DNA of 64,000 nucleotides from a virus: positions 1-64,000 of IMG/VR virus record IMGVR_UViG_3300045988_173642. One strand, written 5' to 3'. The notes under the pieces are model-generated. The model made no database searches and was not told where the DNA came from. It saw nothing but the letters and a program-made list of their open reading frames with translations. This document shows positions 1,893 through 26,238 of the stretch, piece by piece. The stretch's first letter is position 1; each line of letters begins with the position of its first letter. The position numbers were made by a program, and so were the translations under genes.

Positions 1893-4685
1893 TCACAACG
1901 CATACACTTCTAATTCAACCTCACCGATGCCTTCCTGCACGGAGATGGAAGTATTAACCTTGTTGATAAGACATTTTCGGCCATCGATGTTCCACCATTC
2001 CTTCCAATGGTTTTTGATGTCGGCCACTTGTGCCACAGATGCCAGCACCTTCACGTAGAACGTCTTCCGATTAAGCAAGAAATAAACATAGTCAATCAAA
2101 AAAGTATCTACCCATCCTCTATTTTTTACAAAGGGGTCGGAGATGATTAACGGCGCGTCGGCCCATTCAGGCTGCACCCAGGCACGCGGTTTGAGCGAGA
2201 AACTATCGGCATTAGCAACGCCATACACATTGCCGTAGCAATCGATGGAATCCGTTGTCAAGGCATACTTCCCTGCCGTTGTTCGCCATTTGCTGTTGCC
2301 GAAGCCATCGTAATCTGGGTCGTAAACCTCGTGCGTGGCGCCTGCGCCGCCGCCCCTCATGATGGCAACGGACAGTCCCCAATCATGGCTTTGCAGCGGA
2401 GAATTGCCATCGTCGGTAGACGAAGGAGAATAGCTCTCACGAAGCGAAAGCACTTCCGTCACATAGAAGTCTGCCACGGGCGAAGAAATGGAAGTCTTGA
2501 TGTTCTGCACGATAAATTCATGTTCCATCTTGTCTTCGATGGAGGCCACCATGATGTTCTCGGCATATTGACTGTTGATGCCTTGAAGTTCCAAGCCTTC
2601 GTACACCTTTCCCGTCTCCGTCGGCTGCTTCGGATTATCCGACACACAAGTGCTATCGAAGTTAGCAGAGCGAGCCTTGCGGTAGTTGGCATCCACCATC
2701 GGAATGGGCACAAAACTTGATTTCATCTCGTGGATATACTCTTCATTTTCATCTGAGCAATCGCCAAACTCCACGCCCTTAAACGCCCCAACTTCAAACA
2801 AACGCGGTTCCATATTGCTAACGTCGGTGTATTGCGAATCAATCTTGACGCGGTATTTATTGCCCGTCTGCTTATCAATGAAAAGCGTGTCGAGCGTGTT
2901 GCTGATTTTCGGCAAGATTTCGCGGTAGGTGAAAGCCGTGGAAGTTTTCTCTTTATTATAGTCTATATAGTCATAGTCCGTGTTATAGTCCTTGACTTTG
3001 TTCTTCACGTTGTCGCGTTGTTCCTTTGCATCGCTCTCTGCGGAATATCCGACCTTGACCCCGGTGATTTTTTCCGTTATCGGTGTGAACGAAAGCACTT
3101 GTCCAAAGAATCGGCGCGGCTGTGGATTTTGCTTGCGAAAGACATCGCGGATGAGATAGGCCGTCACCTTCTTTTGCTCATAGTCGTAGTTGAACTTGAT
3201 GCCAAATTGCTGTTCCAACGACTCAATCACGTCGCTCACCGTCTCGTTGGGGAAGTTCTCGCCGTTGGCATACATTCGGAAAATGCTGGCGCTCATTTCG
3301 GCTCCCGTGATGGTGCTGCGGCAGGTGATGCTGACCACGTCATCTTCTCCAACAACGCGCTGTTCCCAGTCTCCCAATACCTTGACCACCTCCGTCTTCT
3401 TCGTCGTTCCACCCATGAAGTTTTTCTGTTCCTTCTCAACTATCTTATATTGCACGCTGCGGAAACGCACCTGTTGCACGCTCTTGTTCTTTGGGTTTTC
3501 CAACTTCAGATTGCCGCCACATCCGCGAGAATCCAACCAGGCATTCACGTCGTTGAAGAGGTCTTTAACTTCCGATTCGTTGTTGGCTGTCTTCGTGAAA
3601 TAGCCCAACTTCACATCGCCTTTTTTCTTTAATCCGGTGATGACCTCTTTATCTGTTTCATCATAATAGGTCTTGGCATACAAGGGTACAACGTCATAGG
3701 CACATTTCGTCGTGAAGAAACAAAGGCGGTTGAAATCATAGACTTCCGTCAGAGCGTCCTTGTCAAACTGCACGCCAAGGTGTTCGAAGAGACAGTCGAG
3801 GAAAAAAAGCAAATAGAAGCAAATTCCAGACTGCGGCCTGTCGGCATCCAACACCCACAATGGGCCCATGTCTTCATACATCTTGTCGGGGGCTGTTTCC
3901 TGCGCATATTCAACGATTTTACTCGACGTGTTGCCGTCTTCGCCGATGTCGTAATGAGCATAACAGATGCGGGCGTTGCAATAGGGCTTCGTTGGGTAAG
4001 GCTCAGAAACGTTGATGTATGATTCCGTCACCTCCGGAATGACCACCGACTTGCTATTTGGATAATAGCGCGTTTCCTTTTCCACGGCCTTGTGTCCCCA
4101 GGCGCCATCTTCCTTGCAAGCCGCAGGATAGGAGAATCCAAGCGCCTGTGGCGAAAACGTGATGCTATCCTCGCGATCATCACCAACGGAACCATAAACC
4201 TTATTGCCCTTTTTGCCTGCGAATTTGATTTCAACCGTTGTTGAATATTTGACCCTGACATTCACTTCGTCAATCTTCTCGCCAATCAAGAGTCGGTCGC
4301 GATGGCGCGAAGGGATGGGAACTTCGTTACATTTCAAGTCGCCTATGAGGTCGGAGAAAGAGCGGGTGGCTGCATCCACGTTGAGCGAGAGCGAATCGTC
4401 CGCGCGTTCCCCGTCCTGCACAACAGCCGTTCCAGAAGCGAGCGTGATGCCGTCGGCAACAATCTGCATATTGGTATGTTCCAGGTCAACGGGGCGAATG
4501 GCAGCGCTCGGGTCGTCAAGATTTTTGAGGAAATGGCGGTTGCCTTCAAACGGCAGGTCGACTGGGTAGGAAAACATCTCGTCGTCGTTGAAGAGCGGGT
4601 TACGCAGTTCAACGCTGACGGAAAAATCGCTACCCAGCGTCATCGGTTTGCCGTTAGCCAAGATAGAGAGTTTGCTGTTGCTCAT
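1893..4685 (-). CDS. large tail/baseplate structural protein (930 aa)
   Basis: Uninterrupted 930-aa ORF. Its size and its position among tightly packed same-strand ORFs are typical of tail tip or baseplate proteins. No catalytic motif recognised. Confidence 0.6.
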   Translation of the reverse strand: MSNSKLSILANGKPMTLGSDFSVSVELRNPLFNDDEMFSYPVDLPFEGNRHFLKNLDDPSAAIRPVDLEHTNMQIVADGITLASGTAVVQDGERADDSLSLNVDAATRSFSDLIGDLKCNEVPIPSRHRDRLLIGEKIDEVNVRVKYSTTVEIKFAGKKGNKVYGSVGDDREDSITFSPQALGFSYPAACKEDGAWGHKAVEKETRYYPNSKSVVIPEVTESYINVSEPYPTKPYCNARICYAHYDIGEDGNTSSKIVEYAQETAPDKMYEDMGPLWVLDADRPQSGICFYLLFFLDCLFEHLGVQFDKDALTEVYDFNRLCFFTTKCAYDVVPLYAKTYYDETDKEVITGLKKKGDVKLGYFTKTANNESEVKDLFNDVNAWLDSRGCGGNLKLENPKNKSVQQVRFRSVQYKIVEKEQKNFMGGTTKKTEVVKVLGDWEQRVVGEDDVVSITCRSTITGAEMSASIFRMYANGENFPNETVSDVIESLEQQFGIKFNYDYEQKKVTAYLIRDVFRKQNPQPRRFFGQVLSFTPITEKITGVKVGYSAESDAKEQRDNVKNKVKDYNTDYDYIDYNKEKTSTAFTYREILPKISNTLDTLFIDKQTGNKYRVKIDSQYTDVSNMEPRLFEVGAFKGVEFGDCSDENEEYIHEMKSSFVPIPMVDANYRKARSANFDSTCVSDNPKQPTETGKVYEGLELQGINSQYAENIMVASIEDKMEHEFIVQNIKTSISSPVADFYVTEVLSLRESYSPSSTDDGNSPLQSHDWGLSVAIMRGGGAGATHEVYDPDYDGFGNSKWRTTAGKYALTTDSIDCYGNVYGVANADSFSLKPRAWVQPEWADAPLIISDPFVKNRGWVDTFLIDYVYFLLNRKTFYVKVLASVAQVADIKNHWKEWWNIDGRKCLINKVNTSISVQEGIGEVELEVYAL

Positions 4686-6489: not shown

Positions 6490-7470
6490 TTAATACAACA
6501 GCGGCGAGACGAAAATCTTCGAGCCGGGCTGATTGTTCTCATAGCCCTTTGACGTGTCGGCGGTGGTGGAGGCATTGTCGGCAGCCGGCGGTGGCGTGGC
6601 GGCATCTTCGCGTTTGCTCTCTTCTTCACGCCGTCGCAGAAGGCGCGTGATGCTCTCGCGCAAGAGCACAGAATCATTGTGTGCCGTTTGTCGTTGCTGT
6701 TTGTCAAAGGCCAGCACGGCGGTGCGCTCCGTGAGGAAGGCGGCGGCCAGTTTGCGCAATTTGTCGAGTAGGATGTTTTCCCTTGTGTCGTTCTTCAAGG
6801 TCTCTTCCAAAAGGTCCGGGCCAACAAATTCTGCCAAATATTCCTCTTGGATGAAGCGGATGTCGGGAATGAGGTTGATGAACTTATAGCGGTTGTCGAA
6901 GTGGTGGAGATATTGCGAAAGAACGTCGTGAGAGGGGAAAATCAGTCCGCCACAGAAGTAATAGTATTTCGACTGCTTCCAAAGCTCCACGATTTCCAAT
7001 GTGCTCTCTTCGGTGGTTTCCATTTTGGCCCATCCCTCCAACATGCGGAGCAAGATGTTGGTGTCGCGCATGGCGTCGGCCTTGTAGCTCTGTGCCGCCT
7101 TGTCAACCTGCTTGTCGGAAGCTGCGTCATAGTCATTGCTTGAAGCGACGTTCACGCCCATGCCGTTGACCGACAATAGCTGTTTAGGGATGTTGCGTGC
7201 TTCGGCATCGGCGGCCACGATGCGCTGCGAACAAAGCAGAAGCATCTTCCACGGGTCTTTGGCATATTCGCCGCTCGTGAAGTCGTCGTAGAGTTCATCC
7301 GACGAGAGCGTTTTATAATATTCACAGAGGCGGGCATAGAGCGCATCGCCGAGTTTATCCTTTAAAACGTCTTGTTCGCTACTGTCAATCTGCGCTTGAA
7401 ACGAGGTGAAATCATCGAAGGCGCAGCTGGGGACGTAAAGACGAAATTCTTTTAGGGTTGAAATGATCAT
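6490..7470 (-). CDS. hypothetical protein
   Basis: ORF track gives 6490..7509. The ATG at 7470 (MIISTLKEF...) avoids overlap with the upstream gene, which ends at 7493. Confidence 0.55.
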   Translation of the reverse strand: MIISTLKEFRLYVPSCAFDDFTSFQAQIDSSEQDVLKDKLGDALYARLCEYYKTLSSDELYDDFTSGEYAKDPWKMLLLCSQRIVAADAEARNIPKQLLSVNGMGVNVASSNDYDAASDKQVDKAAQSYKADAMRDTNILLRMLEGWAKMETTEESTLEIVELWKQSKYYYFCGGLIFPSHDVLSQYLHHFDNRYKFINLIPDIRFIQEEYLAEFVGPDLLEETLKNDTRENILLDKLRKLAAAFLTERTAVLAFDKQQRQTAHNDSVLLRESITRLLRRREEESKREDAATPPPAADNASTTADTSKGYENNQPGSKIFVSPLLY

Positions 7471-9801: not shown

Positions 9802-10920
9802 TTACACTGTCTCTAAATGGAACAACACCACATCGTTCGTTTCCAACAAATGTTCTGTTTCCTTATTATAGGGCACACACTGCACGAAGAACAAGGGGCG
9901 ATGCGCGTTGATAACGCCAAAGATTCTGTCAAGGCCCTCCGTGCCGTCGCGTCCGCAGGCAAAGAAGGCAGGGCGCCAAGGTTCGCTATCTTTGTTGCGC
10001 ACAAGCACCTTGTCGAAGGGCTTAAACACGAAAGGCTTGTTTACGAGGTTGCGCTCAAGGAGGCTTTTAACGCTCATCGTTTCGCAGTCGAAACGGAGAC
10101 CTTTGCTGGCGAGTGCGGAATTGAGTTCGGAGATTTGGTTGAGCGTGGCAGGCTGAATGCGGTAGTAACCGAAAGGGTCTTTTTCGGTGGAGAAGAGTTC
10201 CACGTCCTCTGGAGTTTTCATTTCAAGTTTGTCGGAATCATACGCCACAATGCAATGGGCAACGTGGCGAACGACATCATATCGATCCAACACGGCAATT
10301 CTTCTGTCAACCATTTCCCCCTGCTCGTTGTAACGGCGAATGATCACATAATCGCCTTTCACCAATTTCGGCGTAAGGAAATTCTCCTCACTTCCGCGCT
10401 TTACTTCCACGCCAAAGCGCGTTGAGATTTCCTTCAGGAATTTATCGCGCGTTTCTTCGCAGCGGCAACGACGGTAAAGATGCGTGGGGAGATCCGTATG
10501 GTCGAAGCCAAATTTGTGGCCTTCGCCTTCCTTTGCATAAGGATAGAAGAGGACGAACGGGGCACAGAAAAACGCGCAAGTAGAAGTGTTAAATCCGCCG
10601 AAGAGAATCATTTCGTCGTTGGCATTTCTCGGCACCAACACATCCCCCGGCCGCCATAAAAGCACATCCCAATCTCTGATTTTCTTGCTTGGGAAAAGTT
10701 GGCATTCGCCGTACCCGTTCTTGTTGAATAACAATTGCCCATAGGCATTAAAACCGATGACGCTATTGTCACCATTTAGTGCTGTAAATCTACAAGCGAT
10801 TTCGTTGTCCTTGACGTGCTTCAACGTCACGTTTCCGCAAAACGGAGAGTAAAGCATCGTGCCAAGCGCAATGTTGTTTTCTCTTAGGAGTTCTACGATA
10901 TTGGTTTTTGGTTGTTCCAT
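9802..10920 (-). CDS. hypothetical protein
   Basis: 372-aa ORF. Its first 7 codons (MEQPKTN) and 5 upstream nt are identical to those of the gene starting at 13338. Confidence 0.6.
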   Translation of the reverse strand: MEQPKTNIVELLRENNIALGTMLYSPFCGNVTLKHVKDNEIACRFTALNGDNSVIGFNAYGQLLFNKNGYGECQLFPSKKIRDWDVLLWRPGDVLVPRNANDEMILFGGFNTSTCAFFCAPFVLFYPYAKEGEGHKFGFDHTDLPTHLYRRCRCEETRDKFLKEISTRFGVEVKRGSEENFLTPKLVKGDYVIIRRYNEQGEMVDRRIAVLDRYDVVRHVAHCIVAYDSDKLEMKTPEDVELFSTEKDPFGYYRIQPATLNQISELNSALASKGLRFDCETMSVKSLLERNLVNKPFVFKPFDKVLVRNKDSEPWRPAFFACGRDGTEGLDRIFGVINAHRPLFFVQCVPYNKETEHLLETNDVVLFHLETV

Positions 10921-10924
10921 GATT
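10898..10924 (-). repeat. 27-nt start-box repeat, copy A
   Basis: The string atattggtttttggttgttccatgatt matches 13325..13351 exactly. It spans the ATG and the first 7 codons. Confidence 0.9.
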
Positions 10925-10939
10925 ATTTAGTATTCAGTT

Positions 10940-11060
10940 AAAAACGTGCAGTGGTTTATTCGGTTTACCTTCCCAAAATCACGTCTGCACAAGTGTCCGT
11001 TAATTACGTTGTACGGCGACAGCGGTAAGGTCGTGCCGGTCTACGTTCCCCTCGCCCTTC
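10940..11060 (-). repeat. ~115-nt conserved structured element, copy 1 (candidate cis-regulatory RNA or module-boundary cassette)
   Basis: Aligns with 13751..13870: 12 mismatches and one 2-nt gap over about 110 nt by manual alignment. On the minus strand it ends in a hairpin followed by a U run about 25 nt before the ATG at 10920. It overlaps the last 20 codons of the 212-aa ORF. Confidence 0.8.
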
Positions 11061-11638
11061 TCAATCTTCCAGTCGAACCCTGCCGCCTGCAAGCTCTGCA
11101 CGAAAATGTTATAGTCTCTATCTACGATATACGGAGAAATGTTTTCTTCTTCTAAGACAACGAGGCGAGGATTGCGGTCGAGGTCGATGCGAAGTCGGTT
11201 TTTGCCGAGGAAGTCGCAGAACGTGGCCATATTGATAGGAGTTTCAATATGCAGATTATAATGTCCATTTCCGCTTATCCAAAGGTAGGCATAGCAATAT
11301 AGTATTTCCTTTTCGGCATCGTATCGCTTGGCGCATAAAATGCAAATTTCAGAGTTGCTGGGCGAAAAGATTTCATAAAAACGTCCGTCCTCGATATGGT
11401 TGAGCATGTATTCGCGACGCTCTTGCAGGGTGAGGTCCACAGGCGGTGTCGGCAGCCATGTAGGTTTTTCATACTGTTGACATTTCTCCTTTTGCTTTGC
11501 CTTCTTTTCTCTCCAGGTAAGAAAAAACTCCTGCAACAGCCAATTGGAACAGGCGATTATGGCTACTACTACTATCACGCCCATCATGCACTGGAAGAAA
11601 AGCCCCACGCTGTAGTGTTTCAATAAGATTGTTTCCAT
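11000..11638 (-). CDS. hypothetical single-pass membrane protein
   Basis: 212-aa ORF with an N-terminal hydrophobic helix (GLFFQCMMGVIVVVAIIACSNWLL) followed by a Lys-rich stretch. Confidence 0.55.
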   Translation of the reverse strand: METILLKHYSVGLFFQCMMGVIVVVAIIACSNWLLQEFFLTWREKKAKQKEKCQQYEKPTWLPTPPVDLTLQERREYMLNHIEDGRFYEIFSPSNSEICILCAKRYDAEKEILYCYAYLWISGNGHYNLHIETPINMATFCDFLGKNRLRIDLDRNPRLVVLEEENISPYIVDRDYNIFVQSLQAAGFDWKIEKGEGNVDRHDLTAVAVQRN

Positions 11639-11658
11639 TGTTCTCTATTTTGTTATTA

Positions 11659-12759
11659 CTAATTTCTAAAACCATTACTCACCACCCACACGCTCAGTCC
11701 TATATTAAGCAGGAGCATAAGGATGATGATGGCCCAATACTGTTTGTCGCTCAGTTCTACCGAGAGATACTTGAAGTCGGAGAAATTCTTACGCTTCCAT
11801 TCCTTCTGCACGATAGGCTCTATGTAGGCGGCAAAGGCGCGGAGGTCGAGGGGGTGCGACATAAACCAGTCGCGGCTCTTTACCGAAAGCACGGGCGAGT
11901 CGCACCATGAGAAGGCATCGCTCCATACGACGCGGTTGCGGCTGTCAAGACCCCCACACACCACAAGCTCGTTCTTGTTGCCACCCTGCCAGTAGGAGCG
12001 TTGGCGATCGGCAATGGATAGAGGCTTGTTGCGATAGAAGAGCAGATAGAGGCGAAACTCCTTCTTCGGCCCGTATTTAGCATTGAACACACGGATGGCT
12101 CGCTCCTGACAAGCAGAAAACTTGGCTCCGATGATAGGACATTGGTCGCGCAAATGAATGTCGGGGTAATCGTATAGCCCGATGCGCCGAGCCTCCTTCT
12201 CGCTAATGTCCTCAAGCTTGAACACCGAGCGCGAAGCCTTCACTTTATTCTCGTATTCATGTTCACGGGTCACAGGATAGAGCTGGGCGGTCTGTCCGTT
12301 CCACTGGTATTCATAGGCATCGCCATCACGAGTGTAATACTGGCGGTGCATATCTACAAACACCGACGGAGCCTGCAAACGGTCTTTCATCGCCGAAAAC
12401 TCACTTCTACTGCAATCGCGCTCCTTGCCAGAATGGTCGTAATAAGACCATCGCTCGGAATGGTTTACCGTGACGTAATAGGTTTCTGTGTGGCTCTCGC
12501 CTTTTGAGTCGGTGTAGGTTCGGGTACGAATTTCCTGCTCATTCCACGGCTCATAATAGCGTATCTTCGTAACGTAGCTGCCTAAGTATTCGGTGTCGCT
12601 TGACTCTGCTCGTTCAAATGCCCTTATCATCGCTACGCCCACAAGGAGCGGCAAGAGGATTATAAGCACGGCGTGCTCCCACCATGTTGTCTGCTTTCGG
12701 AAGAACAGCAGCAGCACGGCCGACACGAAGAAGGGGATAAGGAAAACGAGTAGTTCCAT
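11659..12759 (-). CDS. hypothetical membrane protein (N- and C-terminal TM helices)
   Basis: 366-aa ORF. It has two hydrophobic helices at the N terminus and one at the C terminus (YWAIIILMLLLNIGLSVWVV) flanking a large soluble domain. Confidence 0.6.
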   Translation of the reverse strand: MELLVFLIPFFVSAVLLLFFRKQTTWWEHAVLIILLPLLVGVAMIRAFERAESSDTEYLGSYVTKIRYYEPWNEQEIRTRTYTDSKGESHTETYYVTVNHSERWSYYDHSGKERDCSRSEFSAMKDRLQAPSVFVDMHRQYYTRDGDAYEYQWNGQTAQLYPVTREHEYENKVKASRSVFKLEDISEKEARRIGLYDYPDIHLRDQCPIIGAKFSACQERAIRVFNAKYGPKKEFRLYLLFYRNKPLSIADRQRSYWQGGNKNELVVCGGLDSRNRVVWSDAFSWCDSPVLSVKSRDWFMSHPLDLRAFAAYIEPIVQKEWKRKNFSDFKYLSVELSDKQYWAIIILMLLLNIGLSVWVVSNGFRN

Positions 12760-12765
12760 AAGCCT

Positions 12766-13338
12766 TTATTGTTTCTTGCCGAACAAATCCACTTCATTGT
12801 CTTCGCCCTCCGTCATCACTTCCTTGGAGCGTGACGAAGAGATTACCTTATACTCGATAGGCATGGTGTTAGACACAAACCATCGGGCAGGGTAGGTGCG
12901 AGTGAGCGTTTCGTGTTCACGGATGATGTCGAGCATACGTTCCTGCGAGGACTGAAACTCGGTGCGCTGTATCTCAATGGCTTGCATAAGGTCGCGGTAG
13001 AGCGATACATCAAAGTTGGGGTTGCTCTCCTTAATCCACTTCATCATCGTGCCCTGGTCGTTCTGATAGCGGCCTGCAATGAGCTGCGGATAAATCTTCT
13101 CGAAAGTGGTCTTGTACTCGTCTGTTACCTGTGCCTTCTGCTGGATGATTTTCCACATCTTGTCGTGTACACCCTCAATCTTTCCACGCTGTGCCTCTGC
13201 CTGTTGGCGCAGCGCAATCTCGCGGTTGTTATAACTGAAGTAGGTGGCTACCAATGAACAGATAACGATGGCAACCACAAGCAGTATGGATGCCGTAATA
13301 ATGTTTTTTGTTTTCATATTGGTTTTTGGTTGTTCCAT
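12766..13338 (-). CDS. LemA-like single-pass membrane protein (weak call)
   Basis: 190-aa ORF with an N-terminal TM helix (IITASILLVVAIVICSLVATYF) followed by a YNN..L....AE helical domain. This resembles LemA-family topology. The similarity was judged by eye only. Confidence 0.35.
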   Translation of the reverse strand: MEQPKTNMKTKNIITASILLVVAIVICSLVATYFSYNNREIALRQQAEAQRGKIEGVHDKMWKIIQQKAQVTDEYKTTFEKIYPQLIAGRYQNDQGTMMKWIKESNPNFDVSLYRDLMQAIEIQRTEFQSSQERMLDIIREHETLTRTYPARWFVSNTMPIEYKVISSSRSKEVMTEGEDNEVDLFGKKQ

Positions 13339-13351
13339 GATTTTATTTTAT
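13325..13351 (-). repeat. 27-nt start-box repeat, copy B
   Basis: Exact match to 10898..10924. Confidence 0.9.
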
Positions 13352-13375
13352 TGTTTATTCCAAACACATTCGCTA

Positions 13376-13729
13376 TTACAAATGCTTGATAAGCGTGCTA
13401 CACTGATGGCCAACCGCCACTTCCTCATAGCCCAATCTCTGATACCATTGAAGCACCCACTGAGGAGAGTCGCGGCCGTCAAACGAGATGGCAACGCTTT
13501 CAACGCCGAAGTTTATCAATTCCCTCTCAGCCGCTTCCAACAAAACTTTGCCCACCTCGCTGCCGCGATAGTCTTCGTCCACCCATAGGGAGTAAATCAG
13601 GGCGTCGGCTTTGCCGTCGACAGGTTTGTCTTTGGTGTAAACGGGGATGAAGGCTTGAACGCTGCCATGATGTTGCTCATCCGTTATGAGAATGTGGATG
13701 GAATCTGCCCAATGTTGATATTGAATCAT
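13376..13729 (-). CDS. GNAT-family N-acetyltransferase (small, 117 aa)
   Basis: An acetyl-CoA-binding motif-A-like string is present (VDEDYRGSEVGKVLLEAAE). ORF track gives 13376..13933; I trimmed it to the ATG at 13729 because the upstream part is the repeated non-coding element. Confidence 0.6.
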   Translation of the reverse strand: MIQYQHWADSIHILITDEQHHGSVQAFIPVYTKDKPVDGKADALIYSLWVDEDYRGSEVGKVLLEAAERELINFGVESVAISFDGRDSPQWVLQWYQRLGYEEVAVGHQCSTLIKHL

Positions 13730-13750
13730 TTGTCGGTTTTTAGTGTAGTA

Positions 13751-13870
13751 AAAAAACGTGCAGTGGTTTATGCGGTTTTCCTTCCATGACTCACGTCTAC
13801 ACCAGTGTCCGTTAATTACGTTGTACGGCGGCATCGGTAGGGGTGCCGGGCTACGTTCCCTTGGCCTTCG
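13751..13870 (-). repeat. ~115-nt conserved structured element, copy 2
   Basis: See copy 1. This copy lies in the intergenic space between the HU-like gene and the GNAT gene. Confidence 0.8.
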
Positions 13871-13947
13871 GGATAAGATGGCAATTGTTGTACCAAGCCA
13901 CTTAATTACTTCCTTCAGTGGCAAATTATGCAAGCGAGATGGCCATT

Positions 13948-14478
13948 TTATCCATCAATATCGCCCGAGTCAGAGCCGCCAGGGTTCTTGTCTGTGCCAG
14001 GGGCGGAGGGGGCATCGGTTACGGATGCGTCGCCAACGCGCTTAAACGAGCCGTGTTGCGCAAAGGCCGCGTTGAACTTCTTGGAGAAGTCGATGGCCAC
14101 GCCTGCGGTGAGGTCTTTCGTGGTGAGGTCGGTAGCCGTGATTTGGCGGTTCACGTCAACGTCCTCTCCTGCGGCCTTGCGTTCTTCAAGCTTTGCTTTG
14201 AGCTGCGTCTGGGTGAGCGAACCGCTAACGGTTGGGCGCACCGTCATGCCTTCGGCCGACACCTGTACCTTGGTGCCCAATGCGAGCAACAAAGGCAACT
14301 TCTTTTCCAACTGCGACATGACGGCCATTACGTCCGCAACGCCAACGGTGGAATCCTGCGCCATGTAGTCGCAAAACTCGGTAAACGACATTTGCTGCAA
14401 GTCGACGATTTGTGCGCTTGCAACCCTTTCTTTCGTGAAGTTGTTTACACGAACAGCAATTTTTGTTTTGATTGCCAT
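13948..14478 (-). CDS. HU-like (HU-HIG type) DNA-binding protein
   Basis: The N terminus (MAIKTKIAVR...MSFTEFCDYMAQDSTVGVADVMAVMSQLEKKLPLLLALGTKV) follows the Bacteroidota histone-like HU-domain pattern. The C-terminal tail is disordered. Confidence 0.5.
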   Translation of the reverse strand: MAIKTKIAVRVNNFTKERVASAQIVDLQQMSFTEFCDYMAQDSTVGVADVMAVMSQLEKKLPLLLALGTKVQVSAEGMTVRPTVSGSLTQTQLKAKLEERKAAGEDVDVNRQITATDLTTKDLTAGVAIDFSKKFNAAFAQHGSFKRVGDASVTDAPSAPGTDKNPGGSDSGDIDG

Positions 14479-16525: not shown

Positions 16526-17854
16526 CTATTTCTTTCCAGGTTTCCTTTCCATATTCTCCTTGAACAACTGCTCAAAGCCTTCGCACGGCATGGTTCCGTT
16601 GGTGGCAAACTTTTCGTAGTTGTCCATGATGTTAGGTGTCTGGCGTTGCAACAGGGCTTCAAGTTCGGTTGGCGATTTGCTCCATCCGTCCAACTCATCC
16701 ATCGCGATTTGCAATGACGTTTTGAGGAACATCGCCGCCTCATGTGTAGGCGGCAAGGCGAATTGCACGAAGAGGGCATTATCCGAGTCGTTGGCCTTGA
16801 GGAACTTGCTAACGGCATCATATTTGAGGAAGAATCTGTCGGCCACCTCTTCTTCGAGAACATCCTCTAAACGGGTCTTCAATTCAAAAGGCGCAGGAAA
16901 CTGATATTCAAAGGCCACATCGCTGCGCATGGAGAGGCAGAACACGCGGTCGCGGTTTTGCGGCACACCATAGTCTTTGGCGTTGAGACGTGCCCAACGG
17001 CTCACATAGCCGAGCGACGAGAGCTTGTCGAGCCACTTTTGAAAGTCGGGCATAAACTTCTGGCTCACCAGTGCCGCCACGTTCTCCTGCAAGAGATACT
17101 TCGGGCGAAGCACCTCCACGGCATCTGCCACGCGCCACAAGAGGGCACTTCGCGTATTGCTACCATCCGTCAATCCCATCTGCTTGCCAGCCTGACTGAT
17201 GTCTTGGCAGGGCGAAGAGTAAGTGAAGAGGTCAACTTCGCTCCCCTGGAGCGACGCCTTGACGGCGTGCCAGTCAATCTTGGTGATGTCGCCAAGAGCG
17301 CGGTTGGCAAACTGCGGAAAGACGAGGTTGTGCATCTGGCAGGCATATTTATCGATGTCGCTCCATCCCATACACGTCCATCGGAAATCGGGATGTCGCT
17401 CCTTCAGCACATCGGCCGCCATGAGCTGAGAATCATAGCCGGAAAACGTCGTGATGATGATTTTCTCGCCACTATCACCTTTGTCAACGGGAAACGCTGG
17501 TAACATCTGCTCGGGAAACATCGTCAACTGCTCATGGCTTTTCACAGGTTGGCTGGGGTACCACAACTGCTCATAGATGTAAGACAACACGTCCACCACA
17601 ATGGAATTACCCGCTTGCTTATATTGCTGACTGGCAGAAACGGCCATCTCCTCTGGCTTACCCTTGGCTTTCCAATCGGGAAGAATGGCCGAAGACTGGG
17701 CGTTGGTGCTCTGCATCGTGCGAATCACGCCCTCACGCACCCCCATCAAACGGAAACATTCGGGGGGGTAAGTTTGCGGATGGCATAGCTTTTGATGGTG
17801 TGGTCGGTGAAATTCAGTTTGGTGATCATTAGTTCGGTTTTTAGTTGTATTCAA
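16526..17854 (-). CDS. DNA (cytosine-5)-methyltransferase catalytic core, circularly permuted motif order (IX-X-I..VIII), no internal TRD
   Basis: Motifs read in order are: PPECFRLMGV (IX), YKQAGNSIVVDV (X), TTFSGYDS (I), SDIDKYA, GDIT, SSPCQDIS (IV, PCQ), QENV (VI) and QNRDRVF (VIII). The ORF-track start at 17854 is a TTG. The natural ATG at 17829 (MITKLNFTDHTIKSYAIRKLTPP...) is out of frame by one nt at the homopolymer 17762-17768. Confidence 0.85.
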   Translation of the reverse strand: MNTTKNRTNDHQTEFHRPHHQKLCHPQTYPPECFRLMGVREGVIRTMQSTNAQSSAILPDWKAKGKPEEMAVSASQQYKQAGNSIVVDVLSYIYEQLWYPSQPVKSHEQLTMFPEQMLPAFPVDKGDSGEKIIITTFSGYDSQLMAADVLKERHPDFRWTCMGWSDIDKYACQMHNLVFPQFANRALGDITKIDWHAVKASLQGSEVDLFTYSSPCQDISQAGKQMGLTDGSNTRSALLWRVADAVEVLRPKYLLQENVAALVSQKFMPDFQKWLDKLSSLGYVSRWARLNAKDYGVPQNRDRVFCLSMRSDVAFEYQFPAPFELKTRLEDVLEEEVADRFFLKYDAVSKFLKANDSDNALFVQFALPPTHEAAMFLKTSLQIAMDELDGWSKSPTELEALLQRQTPNIMDNYEKFATNGTMPCEGFEQLFKENMERKPGKK

Positions 17855-18365: not shown

Positions 18366-19544
18366 CTATCCTTTCGCCTTGAAGTTGTATATCGGTTTTA
18401 TGCGCTTCACGACTTCCACTGTATCGCCTATAAGCGATTCAATTTCTTCGGCCGACTTATATGCCATTGGCGACTCGTCGATGGTTGACTCGCAGACGGA
18501 TGTAGAGTATATGCCCTGCATTTCCTTGCTGTATTCCTCCATAGTAAGCGTTTCCTTTGCCTTGGCTCTCGACATAAGGCGACCTGCACCGTGAGGAGCC
18601 GAGCAAAGCCAATCCTCGTTGCCTTTGCCACGGCATATCAACGAACCATCGCGCATATTGAGCGGAATGATGAGCCGCTCGTCCTTTTCAGCTCGCACGG
18701 CTCCTTTTCGGATGATACTTGAGTGGATGTTGAAATAGTTGTGTCTGGTGGTGAAGAAATCCTCGAACGGCATTTGAAGCCCACGAAGGATAGTCATTGC
18801 TATATTCCATCTGTTCTCGTCGGCAAAATCCTGGCAGACGTGCGCAGCAAAATTGTAAGCGTTAAGGTCTTCGCCTTCAAGATAGGCGAGGTCGGAAGGT
18901 ACCGTACCTAAGCGACGCAACGTATTGTTAATCTCTCTCTCCAAACCATACCTCTTTAAGTCTTCGATGATGCGGTTGCGCTCCTCTCTGTGGTTCACAT
19001 TCTTCTGGGCTAAGTGTTGGAAATAGTTGCACACCTTCACACCGAGATTACGACTTCCCGAATGTACAACAAGATACTTACAGCCCTGCTCGTCCTCGTT
19101 AAGTTCGATGAAATGGTTGCCACCACCGAGAGAACCAAGCGAACGTTCGATATAGTCGAGGTCGAAGCAACCTTCTGTACGTTCGTGCAAAACGTCCAAA
19201 CAACGTAACATTAACGGACTCATTTCTTTTAGTTTGGACTTTTCGTAAACGTCAAATCCGCTCGGCACCGACTCGTTGATGATTCGGTCGAGAAGCGAAA
19301 GGTTTACATCCTTCTTGCCGAGCTGAACTACCAACATGCCACAGCCTATATCTACGCCTACGGTATTTGGTACAACCTTGCCGGCAATCTTAATTACCGT
19401 GCCAATCGTGCTCCCCTTGCCGGCATGACAGTCGGGCATAATGCGTATCTGACAGTCGCGATAAGCCTCGCTCGCTGCCATTCTCTTAATCTGTTCCTTC
19501 GCCTCCTGCTCAATGGTCTTGGCGAAAATCTTTACGTTCTTCAT
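18366..19544 (-). CDS. rtcB: RtcB-family RNA 3'-phosphate/5'-OH ligase
   Basis: Conserved RtcB strings are present: MPDCHAGKG, GGGNHFIEL, VVHSGSRNLG and SAPHGAGR. Length is 392 aa. Confidence 0.9.
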   Translation of the reverse strand: MKNVKIFAKTIEQEAKEQIKRMAASEAYRDCQIRIMPDCHAGKGSTIGTVIKIAGKVVPNTVGVDIGCGMLVVQLGKKDVNLSLLDRIINESVPSGFDVYEKSKLKEMSPLMLRCLDVLHERTEGCFDLDYIERSLGSLGGGNHFIELNEDEQGCKYLVVHSGSRNLGVKVCNYFQHLAQKNVNHREERNRIIEDLKRYGLEREINNTLRRLGTVPSDLAYLEGEDLNAYNFAAHVCQDFADENRWNIAMTILRGLQMPFEDFFTTRHNYFNIHSSIIRKGAVRAEKDERLIIPLNMRDGSLICRGKGNEDWLCSAPHGAGRLMSRAKAKETLTMEEYSKEMQGIYSTSVCESTIDESPMAYKSAEEIESLIGDTVEVVKRIKPIYNFKAKG

Positions 19545-26105: not shown

Positions 26106-26167
26106 TGTCTGTGTAACTATTGTTTTGTGTTAGTATTCGGCTGGTCTTCACGACCATTGCTTCATCG

Positions 26168-26238
26168 TTGCGGAAGAAGGAGTCGAACCTTCGTCTCTTA
26201 ATGGGCGATAAGCGAGCTTCCATCTGCTCCATTCCGCG
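26168..26238 (-). tRNA. initiator-tRNA-like gene with non-canonical anticodon loop
   Basis: Manual fold: CGCGGAA UG GAGC AGAUGGAA GCUC G CUUAU CGCCCA UUAAG AGAC GAAGG UUCGACU CCUUC UUCCGCA A. It has a C1xA72 mismatch and an A11:U24 pair, as in bacterial tRNA-fMet. The anticodon loop is 6 nt (or 8 nt if U31-U39 is open) and has no CAU in position. Confidence 0.55.

Follow-up and report, generated by a model that had tools for sequence, protein, structure and literature searches.

A candidate noncoding RNA family of uncultivated phages with a pseudoknot and a covarying self-complementary loop

What is the role of a structured element that is found twice in one virus genome, each time shortly before a start codon? 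The locus that raises this question lies in a stretch of 64,000 nucleotides (positions 1 to 64,000 of the IMG/VR virus record IMGVR_UViG_3300045988_173642), which was analyzed as a whole and is called the window here. An earlier reading made from the letters alone (the sequence-only reading) described the element as structured RNA on the minus strand, which is the gene strand, and proposed either a cis leader of the two downstream genes (an attenuator or riboswitch) or a small RNA gene. In the present study, we compared the element with its relatives in other phages, which share a predicted pseudoknotted fold with many compensatory changes and a hairpin loop that switches between self-complementary tetramers. 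The explanation that we consider best, and to which we give about an even chance of being right, is a stand-alone noncoding RNA (ncRNA) of ~110-160 nt that would be co-transcribed with its neighbours, released, dimerized via its first hairpin (P1) and active in trans as a decoy or scaffold.

The repeat, its relatives and their common fold

The two copies are direct, 2.8 kb apart, and single rather than tandem. In a blastn comparison, minus-strand positions 11056-10940 (copy 1) and 13866-13752 (copy 2) were 86.3% identical over 117 nt, with one 2-nt gap (E = 5e-35); the duplication and the gap are thus as the sequence-only reading had them, while the mismatches number 14 and not 12. A search of the window with the covariance model R1 returned only these two copies at E <= 1: copy 2 as a complete element from P1 to the U-run (13750-13873, minus strand; 119.4 bits, E = 2.4e-27, full model) and copy 1 as a 5'-truncated element without P1 (10940-11046, minus strand; 89.5 bits). 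A third copy was not found in the 64 kb by this search or by blastn. Copy 2 extends ~17 nt further in the 5' direction, to 13873, than had been described, and this additional part is P1, which is missing from copy 1. The start codons are at 10920 and 13729, 19-20 nt behind the U-runs of copies 1 and 2, respectively, as previously reported.

Exact-pattern scans of IMG/VR and metagenome contigs, in which the pattern was first the 3' half, then the 5' half only, and then one with four loop positions free, recovered at least ~135 loci (designated by L numbers below) with at least 103 unique sequences, and the family is larger than the ~135 loci recovered. Homologues with compensatory changes, which the sequence-only reading had named as the point on which its proposal depended, were looked for and are present among these loci. 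Two main subclasses have the 5' domain in common and unrelated pseudoknot sequences. Class 1, to which the window belongs, is 108-162 nt long and was found in human-gut-type contigs of 50-100 kb; class 2 is 111-131 nt long and came from varied environmental samples. The same plan is kept in the variants L098/L102, L106/L119, L121, L131, L142, L143 and L172. The contig of the relative L043 was binned with a Prevotella metagenome-assembled genome.

Comparison of these relatives shows a predicted fold with the following order of parts: P1, a junction, hairpins P2 and P2b, and an H-type pseudoknot (P3 together with the GUGCAG/CUGCAC helix) that encloses the mini-hairpin P4. Minimum-free-energy folding of the two copies was no better than that of shuffled sequence (z = +0.3 and +1.3). 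Since the folding of single copies was uninformative, the question of structure was decided by the relatives, that is, by comparative data and not by thermodynamic stability. RNAalifold on a raw MAFFT alignment recovered none of P2, P3 and P4, but only the helices that do not vary; therefore, two hand-anchored fixed-register alignments were used instead, A4 with 37 distinct class-1 sequences (variable parts were written as N so that MAFFT kept the register) and A6 with 27 class-2 sequences. Anchors were set by hand on conserved motifs, and the aligned sequences are mutually related. In A4, 95.9% of the 999 pair cells hold a standard pair, compared with 84.5 +/- 0.7% in column shuffles (0 of 500 reached the observed value) and 28-39% when the 3' partners were slid. 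Thirteen of its 27 pairs change on both sides; P2 and P3 contribute four each and P4 three, and the pseudoknot helix and the P1 loop have one apiece. The corresponding values for A6 are 97.8% paired, 91.6% in shuffles and 29-34% when slid, with six pairs that change on both sides. Of the two controls, sliding allows the fairer comparison; its values lie far below those observed and speak against an alignment artefact.

In copy 2 (minus strand), P1 is UCCC-GAAGGCCAA-GGGA (13857-13873), whose 9-nt loop contains the self-complementary GGCC. The junction ACGUAGCC (13849-13856), P2 (CGGCA-(10 nt)-UGCCG, 13829-13848) and P2b (CCGU-ACAACGUAAUUA-ACGG, 13809-13828) follow. P3, ACAC-UGGUGUAGAC-GUGA (13791-13808), is stem 1 of the pseudoknot, and the 5' strand of stem 2, GUGUAG (13797-13802), lies inside the P3 loop UGGUGUAGAC. 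The 3' strand of stem 2, CUGCAC (13758-13763), is followed by G and U7 (13750-13756), and P4, UGG-AAGGAAAA-CCG (13773-13786), is placed in loop 3 of the pseudoknot. In copy 1, also on the minus strand, the junction is at 11039-11046, P2 at 11017-11038, P2b at 10997-11016 (CCGU-ACAACGUAAUUA-ACGG, identical to copy 2), P3 at 10979-10996, the pseudoknot 5' strand at 10985-10990, P4 at 10959-10977, the pseudoknot 3' strand at 10946-10951, and the U5 run, preceded by G, at 10940-10944. A stem-2 strand within the loop of stem 1, together with compensatory change in both stems, is what an H-type pseudoknot has.

All four counted pairs of P2 change on both sides, and P2 is an arm of variable length (20 to ~65 nt among the relatives; the arm is 43 nt longer in L001-type relatives). 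All four P3 pairs also change on both sides, with the variants CAC/GUG, CUC/GAG, CUG/CAG, UGC/GCA and UAC/GUA. As the register of P4 varies, only 78% of its cells are paired in A4, and its three counted pairs are all double-changed. In the pseudoknot helix, the A4 pair 67-111 is GC in 30 sequences, AU in four and GU in three, and the helix forms the series GUGCAG/CUGCAC, GUGCAG/CUGCAU and AUGCAG/CUGCAU. Two further double changes are seen in L131 (AUACGG/CCGUA), and the class-2 helix goes from GCAAC/GUUGC to GUAAC/GUUAU. P2b does not vary within A4 or in most of class 1, but it covaries elsewhere: the nearest relatives of the window (L145 and L134) give CCGU/ACGG, CUGU/ACGG and CUGU/ACAG, L131 has UGGU/ACCA, and class 2 has CCUG/CAGG, CCUA/UAGG and ACUG/CAGU. 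The G-U pairs are numerous, and the opposite strand would give A-C mismatches at these positions; thus, the transcribed strand is the gene strand. As a separate observation, the class-1 relative L020 has a 38-nt hairpin-capable insertion (~3960-4000) inside the otherwise conserved P2b loop, and AAUGG replaces AACGG in its P2b, which gives a G-U wobble. The P2b loop thus tolerates an extra arm at this place.

Much of what the sequence-only reading described reappears in this fold. Its hairpin CGGC(A)...(U)GCCG, with a kept stem and a loop that differs in sequence and length, is P2 (CGGCA...UG(C/U)CG), and its invariant CCGU...ACGG hairpin is P2b. The G and U-run behind the last helix, described there as G and U5-7, are present, with five U in copy 1 and seven in copy 2, and the stem-preserving substitutions and the placing of a structured RNA on the minus strand agree with the double changes and G-U pairs of the relatives. 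For the last helix, the change from GUGCAG/CUGCAC to GUGUAG/CUGCAC, which gives a G-U pair on the minus strand only, is as stated; the helix is, however, not a simple terminator-like hairpin, because its 5' strand is part of the covarying P3 loop and it belongs to a pseudoknot.

Besides the P1 loop, the only unpaired nucleotides common to every subclass are two CGUA motifs in the context (A/U/N)-CGUA-R. The first is the single-stranded N-CGUA-R of the junction (13852-13855 in copy 2 and 11042-11045 in copy 1), in which CGUA is invariant in both A4 and A6; the second is in the P2b loop (13817-13820 and 11005-11008, respectively). Neither a pairing partner for the two motifs nor covariation between them was found. 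We also observed that CGUA resembles positions 34-37 of the tRNA-Thr(CGU) anticodon loop, and that (A/U)-CGU-A-R resembles positions 33-38.

The RNA family appears to be new, unannotated and widespread in uncultivated phages. The sequence-only reading had matched it to no known RNA family and had proposed an Rfam scan; Rfam 15 (4227 covariance models) gave no match on the element in the window, in class 1 or in the other subclasses, even at permissive thresholds of E <= 5-10. In INPHARED (50,697 deposited phage genomes), blastn found no match for the 6-kb region, for copy 1, or for class-2 and class-3 elements, and no description of the RNA was found in the searchable literature with sequence strings and keywords. 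ARAGORN and the Rfam models detected no tRNA or tmRNA fold in the element; their sole call in the window was a tRNA at 26167-26238. It is frequent both in uncultivated phages of the gut and in environmental phages, and its covariation is unusually clean. Fremin et al. 2023 (PMC10690425) have 10,006 unnamed candidate RNAs, and the family may be included there.

The P1 loop and its predicted pairing

The P1 loop consists of 9 nt of the form GAA-NNNN-AA, with the variants GAA-GGCC-AA, GAA-GUAC-AA and GAA-GCGC-AA. When the search pattern did not specify any of the four N positions, the accepted members in viral contigs were 34 unique sequences with GGCC, 34 with GUAC and one with GCGC; in metagenomes, the accepted members among the matches listed had GGCC in at least ~27 unique sequences, GUAC in at least ~24 and GCGC in at least one. 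The non-palindromic accepted members were three single sequences, each one base off (AGCC, GGUC and GACC), and chance matches to the same pattern had assorted tetramers. The loop pair 12-13 of A4 is GC in 31 sequences, UA in five and CG in one. These two middle positions are adjacent and thus cannot pair within one loop, although they covary. An intramolecular partner of the P1 loop was also considered and excluded, since the only difference between two relatives in the compared fixed-register core is the tetramer, GGCC in L022 and GUAC in L033. Furthermore, four GUAC sequences each have a GGCC sequence as the nearest neighbour, at 0-3 differences, which means that the GGCC/GUAC switch took place at least four separate times.

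A self-complementary core with purine flanks, in which variation keeps the self-complementarity, is the pattern of a kissing loop. The simplest reading is that two RNA molecules probably pair with each other, loop to loop, through the P1 tetramer, as in the dimerization initiation site (DIS) of HIV-1. The natural palindromes of the HIV-1 DIS are GCGCGC and GUGCAC. The DIS is similar to P1 in its 9-nt loop hairpin, self-complementary core, purine flanks and paired palindrome switches; it differs in having a 6-nt core and in belonging to a retroviral genome, whereas the core here has 4 nt and the putative dimer would be formed by a small ncRNA of DNA phages. The phi29-type pRNA (RF00044) is a small structured RNA of a dsDNA phage that forms oligomers through loop-loop base pairs. 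The phage RNA described here is also small and structured with a putative loop-loop oligomer; however, two different complementary loops lead to a ring in pRNA, whereas one palindromic loop would lead to a symmetric dimer of pseudoknotted architecture here. In addition, RF00044 did not match the element, and the host phages of the present family are contigs of 50-100 kb unrelated to phi29. As an observation on the tetramers themselves, GGCC, GCGC and GTAC are classic 4-bp methylase/restriction sites and the element is near a C5 methyltransferase gene, which may well be coincidental. If the dimer is real, the family would provide an RNA of only ~115 nt, and hence a tractable one, that combines a DIS-like kissing loop with an H-type pseudoknot and two conserved single-stranded motifs. 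Homo-oligomeric natural RNAs are rare, and the recently characterized ones, GOLLD, ROOL and OLE, are large (PMC12286853).

Gene context, proposed function and rival explanations

The RNA is always read in the direction of the surrounding genes. In class 1, the element begins 13-110 nt after the upstream stop codon and lies 19-47 nt upstream of start codons. The downstream gene encodes RtcB in 11 loci (directly adjacent) and a 212-aa protein family (open reading frame (ORF) cluster 8) in 14 loci; other downstream genes encode a 183-aa phrog_1383-type protein, an SPFH protein, families of 68, 199 and 372 aa, and, as in the window, a GNAT acetyltransferase. The upstream gene is steadier (GNAT in 28 loci and HU-HIG in ~12). 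A T-rich tail follows the element in 60 of the 61 unique class-1 sequences, compared with six of the 29 unique class-2 sequences. In class 2, tRNA genes or other RNA-like sequence are found 7-10 nt 3' of the element. In L143 the element lies between two tRNA genes, and in L098, a 64-kb viral contig, the region 6735-7287 begins with the element, after which two tRNAs (6887-6958 and 7201-7287) flank a permuted two-piece tmRNA (6973-7147; 64 bits).

A second conserved noncoding sequence was observed in these arrays, AAAAACGCUGAUG-(variable hairpin)-GAAGAGUGYA..GCUAGCARCUCA..GGUUAAGCGUG. It stands directly after the class-2 element in L058, L059, L078, L080, L081, L083, L089 and L104, and after the next tRNA in L088 and L182. 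Its hairpin covaries (GAUG-UUCGG-CAUC versus AUG-GAAA-CAU), and Rfam gave no match; it may be another unannotated RNA gene of these arrays.

For the stand-alone ncRNA that we favour, the following course can be proposed. The RNA would be transcribed with the preceding gene or tRNA array, since the 13-110 nt to the upstream stop codon leave little room for a promoter of its own in class 1; a sigma-70 promoter scan, which is ill-suited to Bacteroidota promoters, gave no excess over shuffles. Its 3' end would be made in class 1 by a transcription stop at the pseudoknot helix and U-run, and in class 2 by processing away of the next tRNA. Two molecules would then be joined by the kiss of the P1-loop tetramers, and the dimer would display four single-stranded copies of N-CGUA-R, from the junction and the P2b loop of each molecule. 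This surface may bind a host or phage protein, and the RNA may thereby act in trans as a decoy or scaffold. The neighbours (tRNA arrays, RtcB and GNAT acetyltransferase) suggest, from context only, tRNA or RNA-repair biology. The more specific proposal, a symmetric homodimer formed by a 4-bp kiss that acts upon the tRNA or RNA-repair biology of the host or the phage, is tentative, and we are inclined to doubt it; a decoy for a tRNA-targeting defence or enzyme is one possibility. Its siting in tRNA arrays and near RNA-repair genes makes the RNA a concrete candidate for a phage means of manipulating the tRNA biology or the defence of the host at the RNA level. Of the two copies in the window, copy 2 would be the working, complete RNA, and copy 1, a remnant without P1, probably has no other role than to form the 3' end or terminator of the message of the 212-aa gene.

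Both kinds of 3' end are comparable to known systems. The tRNA cluster of phage T4 contains the stable RNAs species 1 and 2, which are small non-tRNA RNAs. Like class 2 and L143, they are sited in a phage tRNA array and presumably released by tRNA-processing enzymes; in contrast, the subclass of the window is located between protein genes and has a U-run end, and sequence kinship is not expected. Small RNAs from mRNA 3' untranslated regions, which share the terminator of the parent message, are like class 1 in beginning shortly after a stop codon and ending in a helix and U-run. They differ in that the 3' helix here is a pseudoknot stem and that the RNA is far more structured than seed-pairing small RNAs.

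Several points weigh against a stand-alone, trans-acting RNA. The discrete RNA, its 5' and 3' ends and its dimer are predictions from sequence, and the role as a decoy or scaffold is suggested by context only. A conserved partner protein was looked for by ORF clustering within 5 kb on either side of 83 loci, and the only neighbour common to both subclasses is a C5 DNA methyltransferase. The kiss would consist of only 4 bp, and a 4-bp palindrome may have a cause at the DNA level. Hand anchoring tilts the alignments somewhat toward the structure, and in single-sequence folding neither strand of either copy beats shuffled sequence. Finally, the position of the class-1 element between two ORFs with a U-run also fits a purely cis role.

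Such a cis role is the rival that survives best: the element would be at once a terminator, a stabilizer of the mRNA 3' end (of the upstream GNAT or HU-HIG message) and a cassette boundary that insulates neighbouring cassettes, with no function in trans. The U-run behind the class-1 pseudoknot helix and the short distance from the upstream stop codon are what it would predict, the mosaic breakpoints and cassette edges coincide with the element, and in copy 1 only the 3' part has been retained. The U-tract is also within 0-2 nt of the helix (G and U5 in copy 1, G and U7 in copy 2), as in a terminator. However, the helix is not a G+C-rich hairpin with a 3-8-nt loop; it has 6 bp and encloses ~35-40 nt (the P3 3' strand and P4), and for this reason a simple terminator scan does not call it. 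A terminator needs neither a covarying self-complementary loop nor two CGUA motifs kept across subclasses with unrelated pseudoknot sequences, and class 2 is mostly without the U-run and lies in tRNA arrays. We therefore regard a purely cis function as unlikely, while taking it seriously.

The leader that the sequence-only reading had proposed is improbable. In a riboswitch or attenuator, a ligand or factor would set the formation of the pseudoknot-terminator and hence the reading of the downstream gene. Its position ahead of start codons, a conserved structured domain with highly conserved, pocket-like unpaired nucleotides, and the U-run after the pseudoknot would suit this function, but the downstream genes do not belong to a consistent functional class; they are unrelated (RtcB, SPFH, GNAT and unknowns) or are tRNA genes. 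No conserved antiterminator was seen in a non-exhaustive look, and the AUGCAG variants, which keep the pseudoknot by a compensatory change, disrupt the sole candidate, UGGU/ACCA. Thus, the variation of the downstream genes, the siting with tRNAs and the lack of the U-run in most of class 2 make a sensor for one downstream gene unlikely, and the U-run is an optional 3'-end signal and not a conserved expression platform. As copy 1 is moreover truncated, the proposal of a leader for two genes is not supported, and the small RNA gene, the other option offered at that time, fits the evidence best.

A new self-cleaving ribozyme or processing element that cuts polycistronic transcripts between cassettes or beside tRNAs is quite improbable. 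The 2',3'-cyclic phosphate and 5'-OH ends left by cleavage would be of the type that RtcB ligase uses as substrates, and the gene for RtcB is directly downstream in the 11 loci mentioned above; the element is also intergenic, has no fixed gene partner, occurs near tRNAs and keeps ~15 unpaired nucleotides across subclasses in a pseudoknotted fold. On the other hand, no known ribozyme class was matched even at permissive E-values, nothing points to a cleavage site, and RtcB is not adjacent to the element in the window or in class 2.

We consider processive antitermination in cis, as by the put RNAs of HK022, very unlikely; in this case, the nascent RNA binds the polymerase and causes read-through of downstream terminators. 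This function would explain two similar copies in one co-directional gene train of one phage, and the element resembles putL and putR in having similar structured copies in one genome, no fixed gene partner and an invariably sense orientation. However, the fold differs from the two put stem-loops, a U-run is directly behind the element, the sites are not just after promoters, a single copy is visible in most loci, and the self-complementary loop would be unexplained. Two direct copies of which one overlaps the 3' end of an ORF could also be a neutral duplication, the template and variable repeats of a diversity-generating retroelement or a miniature mobile repeat, but this can practically be dismissed, as it is contradicted by strong strand-specific covariation across all these loci, by mismatches of all kinds (T/G, C/T, A/C and an indel) that are not adenine-confined, and by the presence of only two copies in 64 kb. 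No reverse transcriptase was found among the selected window ORFs scanned. A type III toxin-antitoxin RNA (ToxI-like) was rejected, since the copies are two single ones and not a tandem array.

Copy 1, cassette exchange and neighbouring features

The genes around both copies are all on the minus strand. Copy 2 fills the gap between the gene for an HU-HIG protein (13948-14478) upstream and the gene for the GNAT acetyltransferase (13376-13729) downstream. The genes for a 190-aa phrog_1383 protein and a 366-aa phrog_2087 protein follow in this order, and then the 212-aa ORF (11000-11638, from the ORF list), which runs into copy 1, so that the overlap noted in the sequence-only reading is present. 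Downstream of copy 1 is the 372-aa ORF (9802-10920). A comparison of the 366-aa and 372-aa products encoded behind the two copies gave no sign of paralogy. Farther upstream, the gene for the RtcB RNA ligase (18366-19544, minus strand; Pfam E = 5e-61) lies 4.5 kb from copy 2, and the gene for the C5 cytosine DNA methyltransferase (16526-17854), also present at 20 related loci, is ~2.8 kb upstream of the element.

The last ~15 codons of the 212-aa ORF come from the RNA element, across the junction, P2 and half of P2b, and its stop codon TAA (11000-11002) is in the P2b loop of copy 1. Homologues of the 212-aa protein (L010 and L011) have different C-terminal ends and are encoded downstream of a complete element. 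The loops of copy 1 have UUGUGCAGAC for UGGUGCAGAC and AAGGUAAA for AAGGAAAA, and at both positions the remaining 36 sequences of A4 do not vary. The cassette made up of the 212-aa gene and copy 1 (10928-11649, minus strand) is present in the window and in L145, which is 93.5% identical to the window and has both copies, 2790 nt apart. In blastn comparisons with the window, the close relative L134 is without exactly 11649-10928, L027 without 13315-10925 and L105 without 13353-9819. As the cassette is missing in L134, copy 1 is the 3' edge of an inserted cassette, and, judging from these sequences, it is a 5'-truncated derivative produced by cassette recombination and not a second intact regulator. 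For annotation, the RNA may serve as a marker: it is easily taken for a leader or terminator, and ORF callers read through it, as in the 212-aa gene.

Among phages that are 90-94% identical, accessory-gene cassettes are nested and present or absent, as seen for 9819-13353 of the window compared with L027, L105, L134 and L145. Breakpoints are also found inside the element, the 5' half having been replaced in L003 and L044 and the 3' half in L066, L069 and L221. The RNA is conserved among otherwise different phages and thus provides a homologous stretch through which cassettes can be exchanged; the breakpoints of this exchange of accessory genes are marked by it. PeSL of T4-type phages is a promoter with a simple stem-loop that acts at the level of DNA and transcription. 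Like the element here, PeSL is conserved and intergenic, bounds small accessory-gene cassettes and offers homology for shuffling; it differs in that the present element has extensive covariation at the RNA level, a pseudoknot and a putative dimerization loop.

 The motif GGATTTATAGAG, found 3' of many class-1 copies, was considered as a part of the element or a promoter and rejected, since it is a general gene-start motif with 35 other occurrences on the gene strand. Many start codons of class-1 loci and the window are preceded, at a distance of 3-15 nt, by the strand-specific motif (A)AGGATTTATAGA(G/A), which occurs 74 times on the gene strand and 22 times on the opposite strand; examples in the window lie on the minus strand, ~5.8 and ~6.7 kb upstream of copy 2. 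This motif may mark gene starts or serve the initiation of translation in a group that lacks the classic Shine-Dalgarno sequence. The tRNA gene at 26167-26238 (minus strand; Rfam 42.9 bits) apparently has an anticodon loop of 8 nt, UCGCCCAU, and ARAGORN assigned no amino acid to it ('tRNA-???, anticodon (cc)'); this tRNA may resemble frameshift suppressors or be unusual in some other way.

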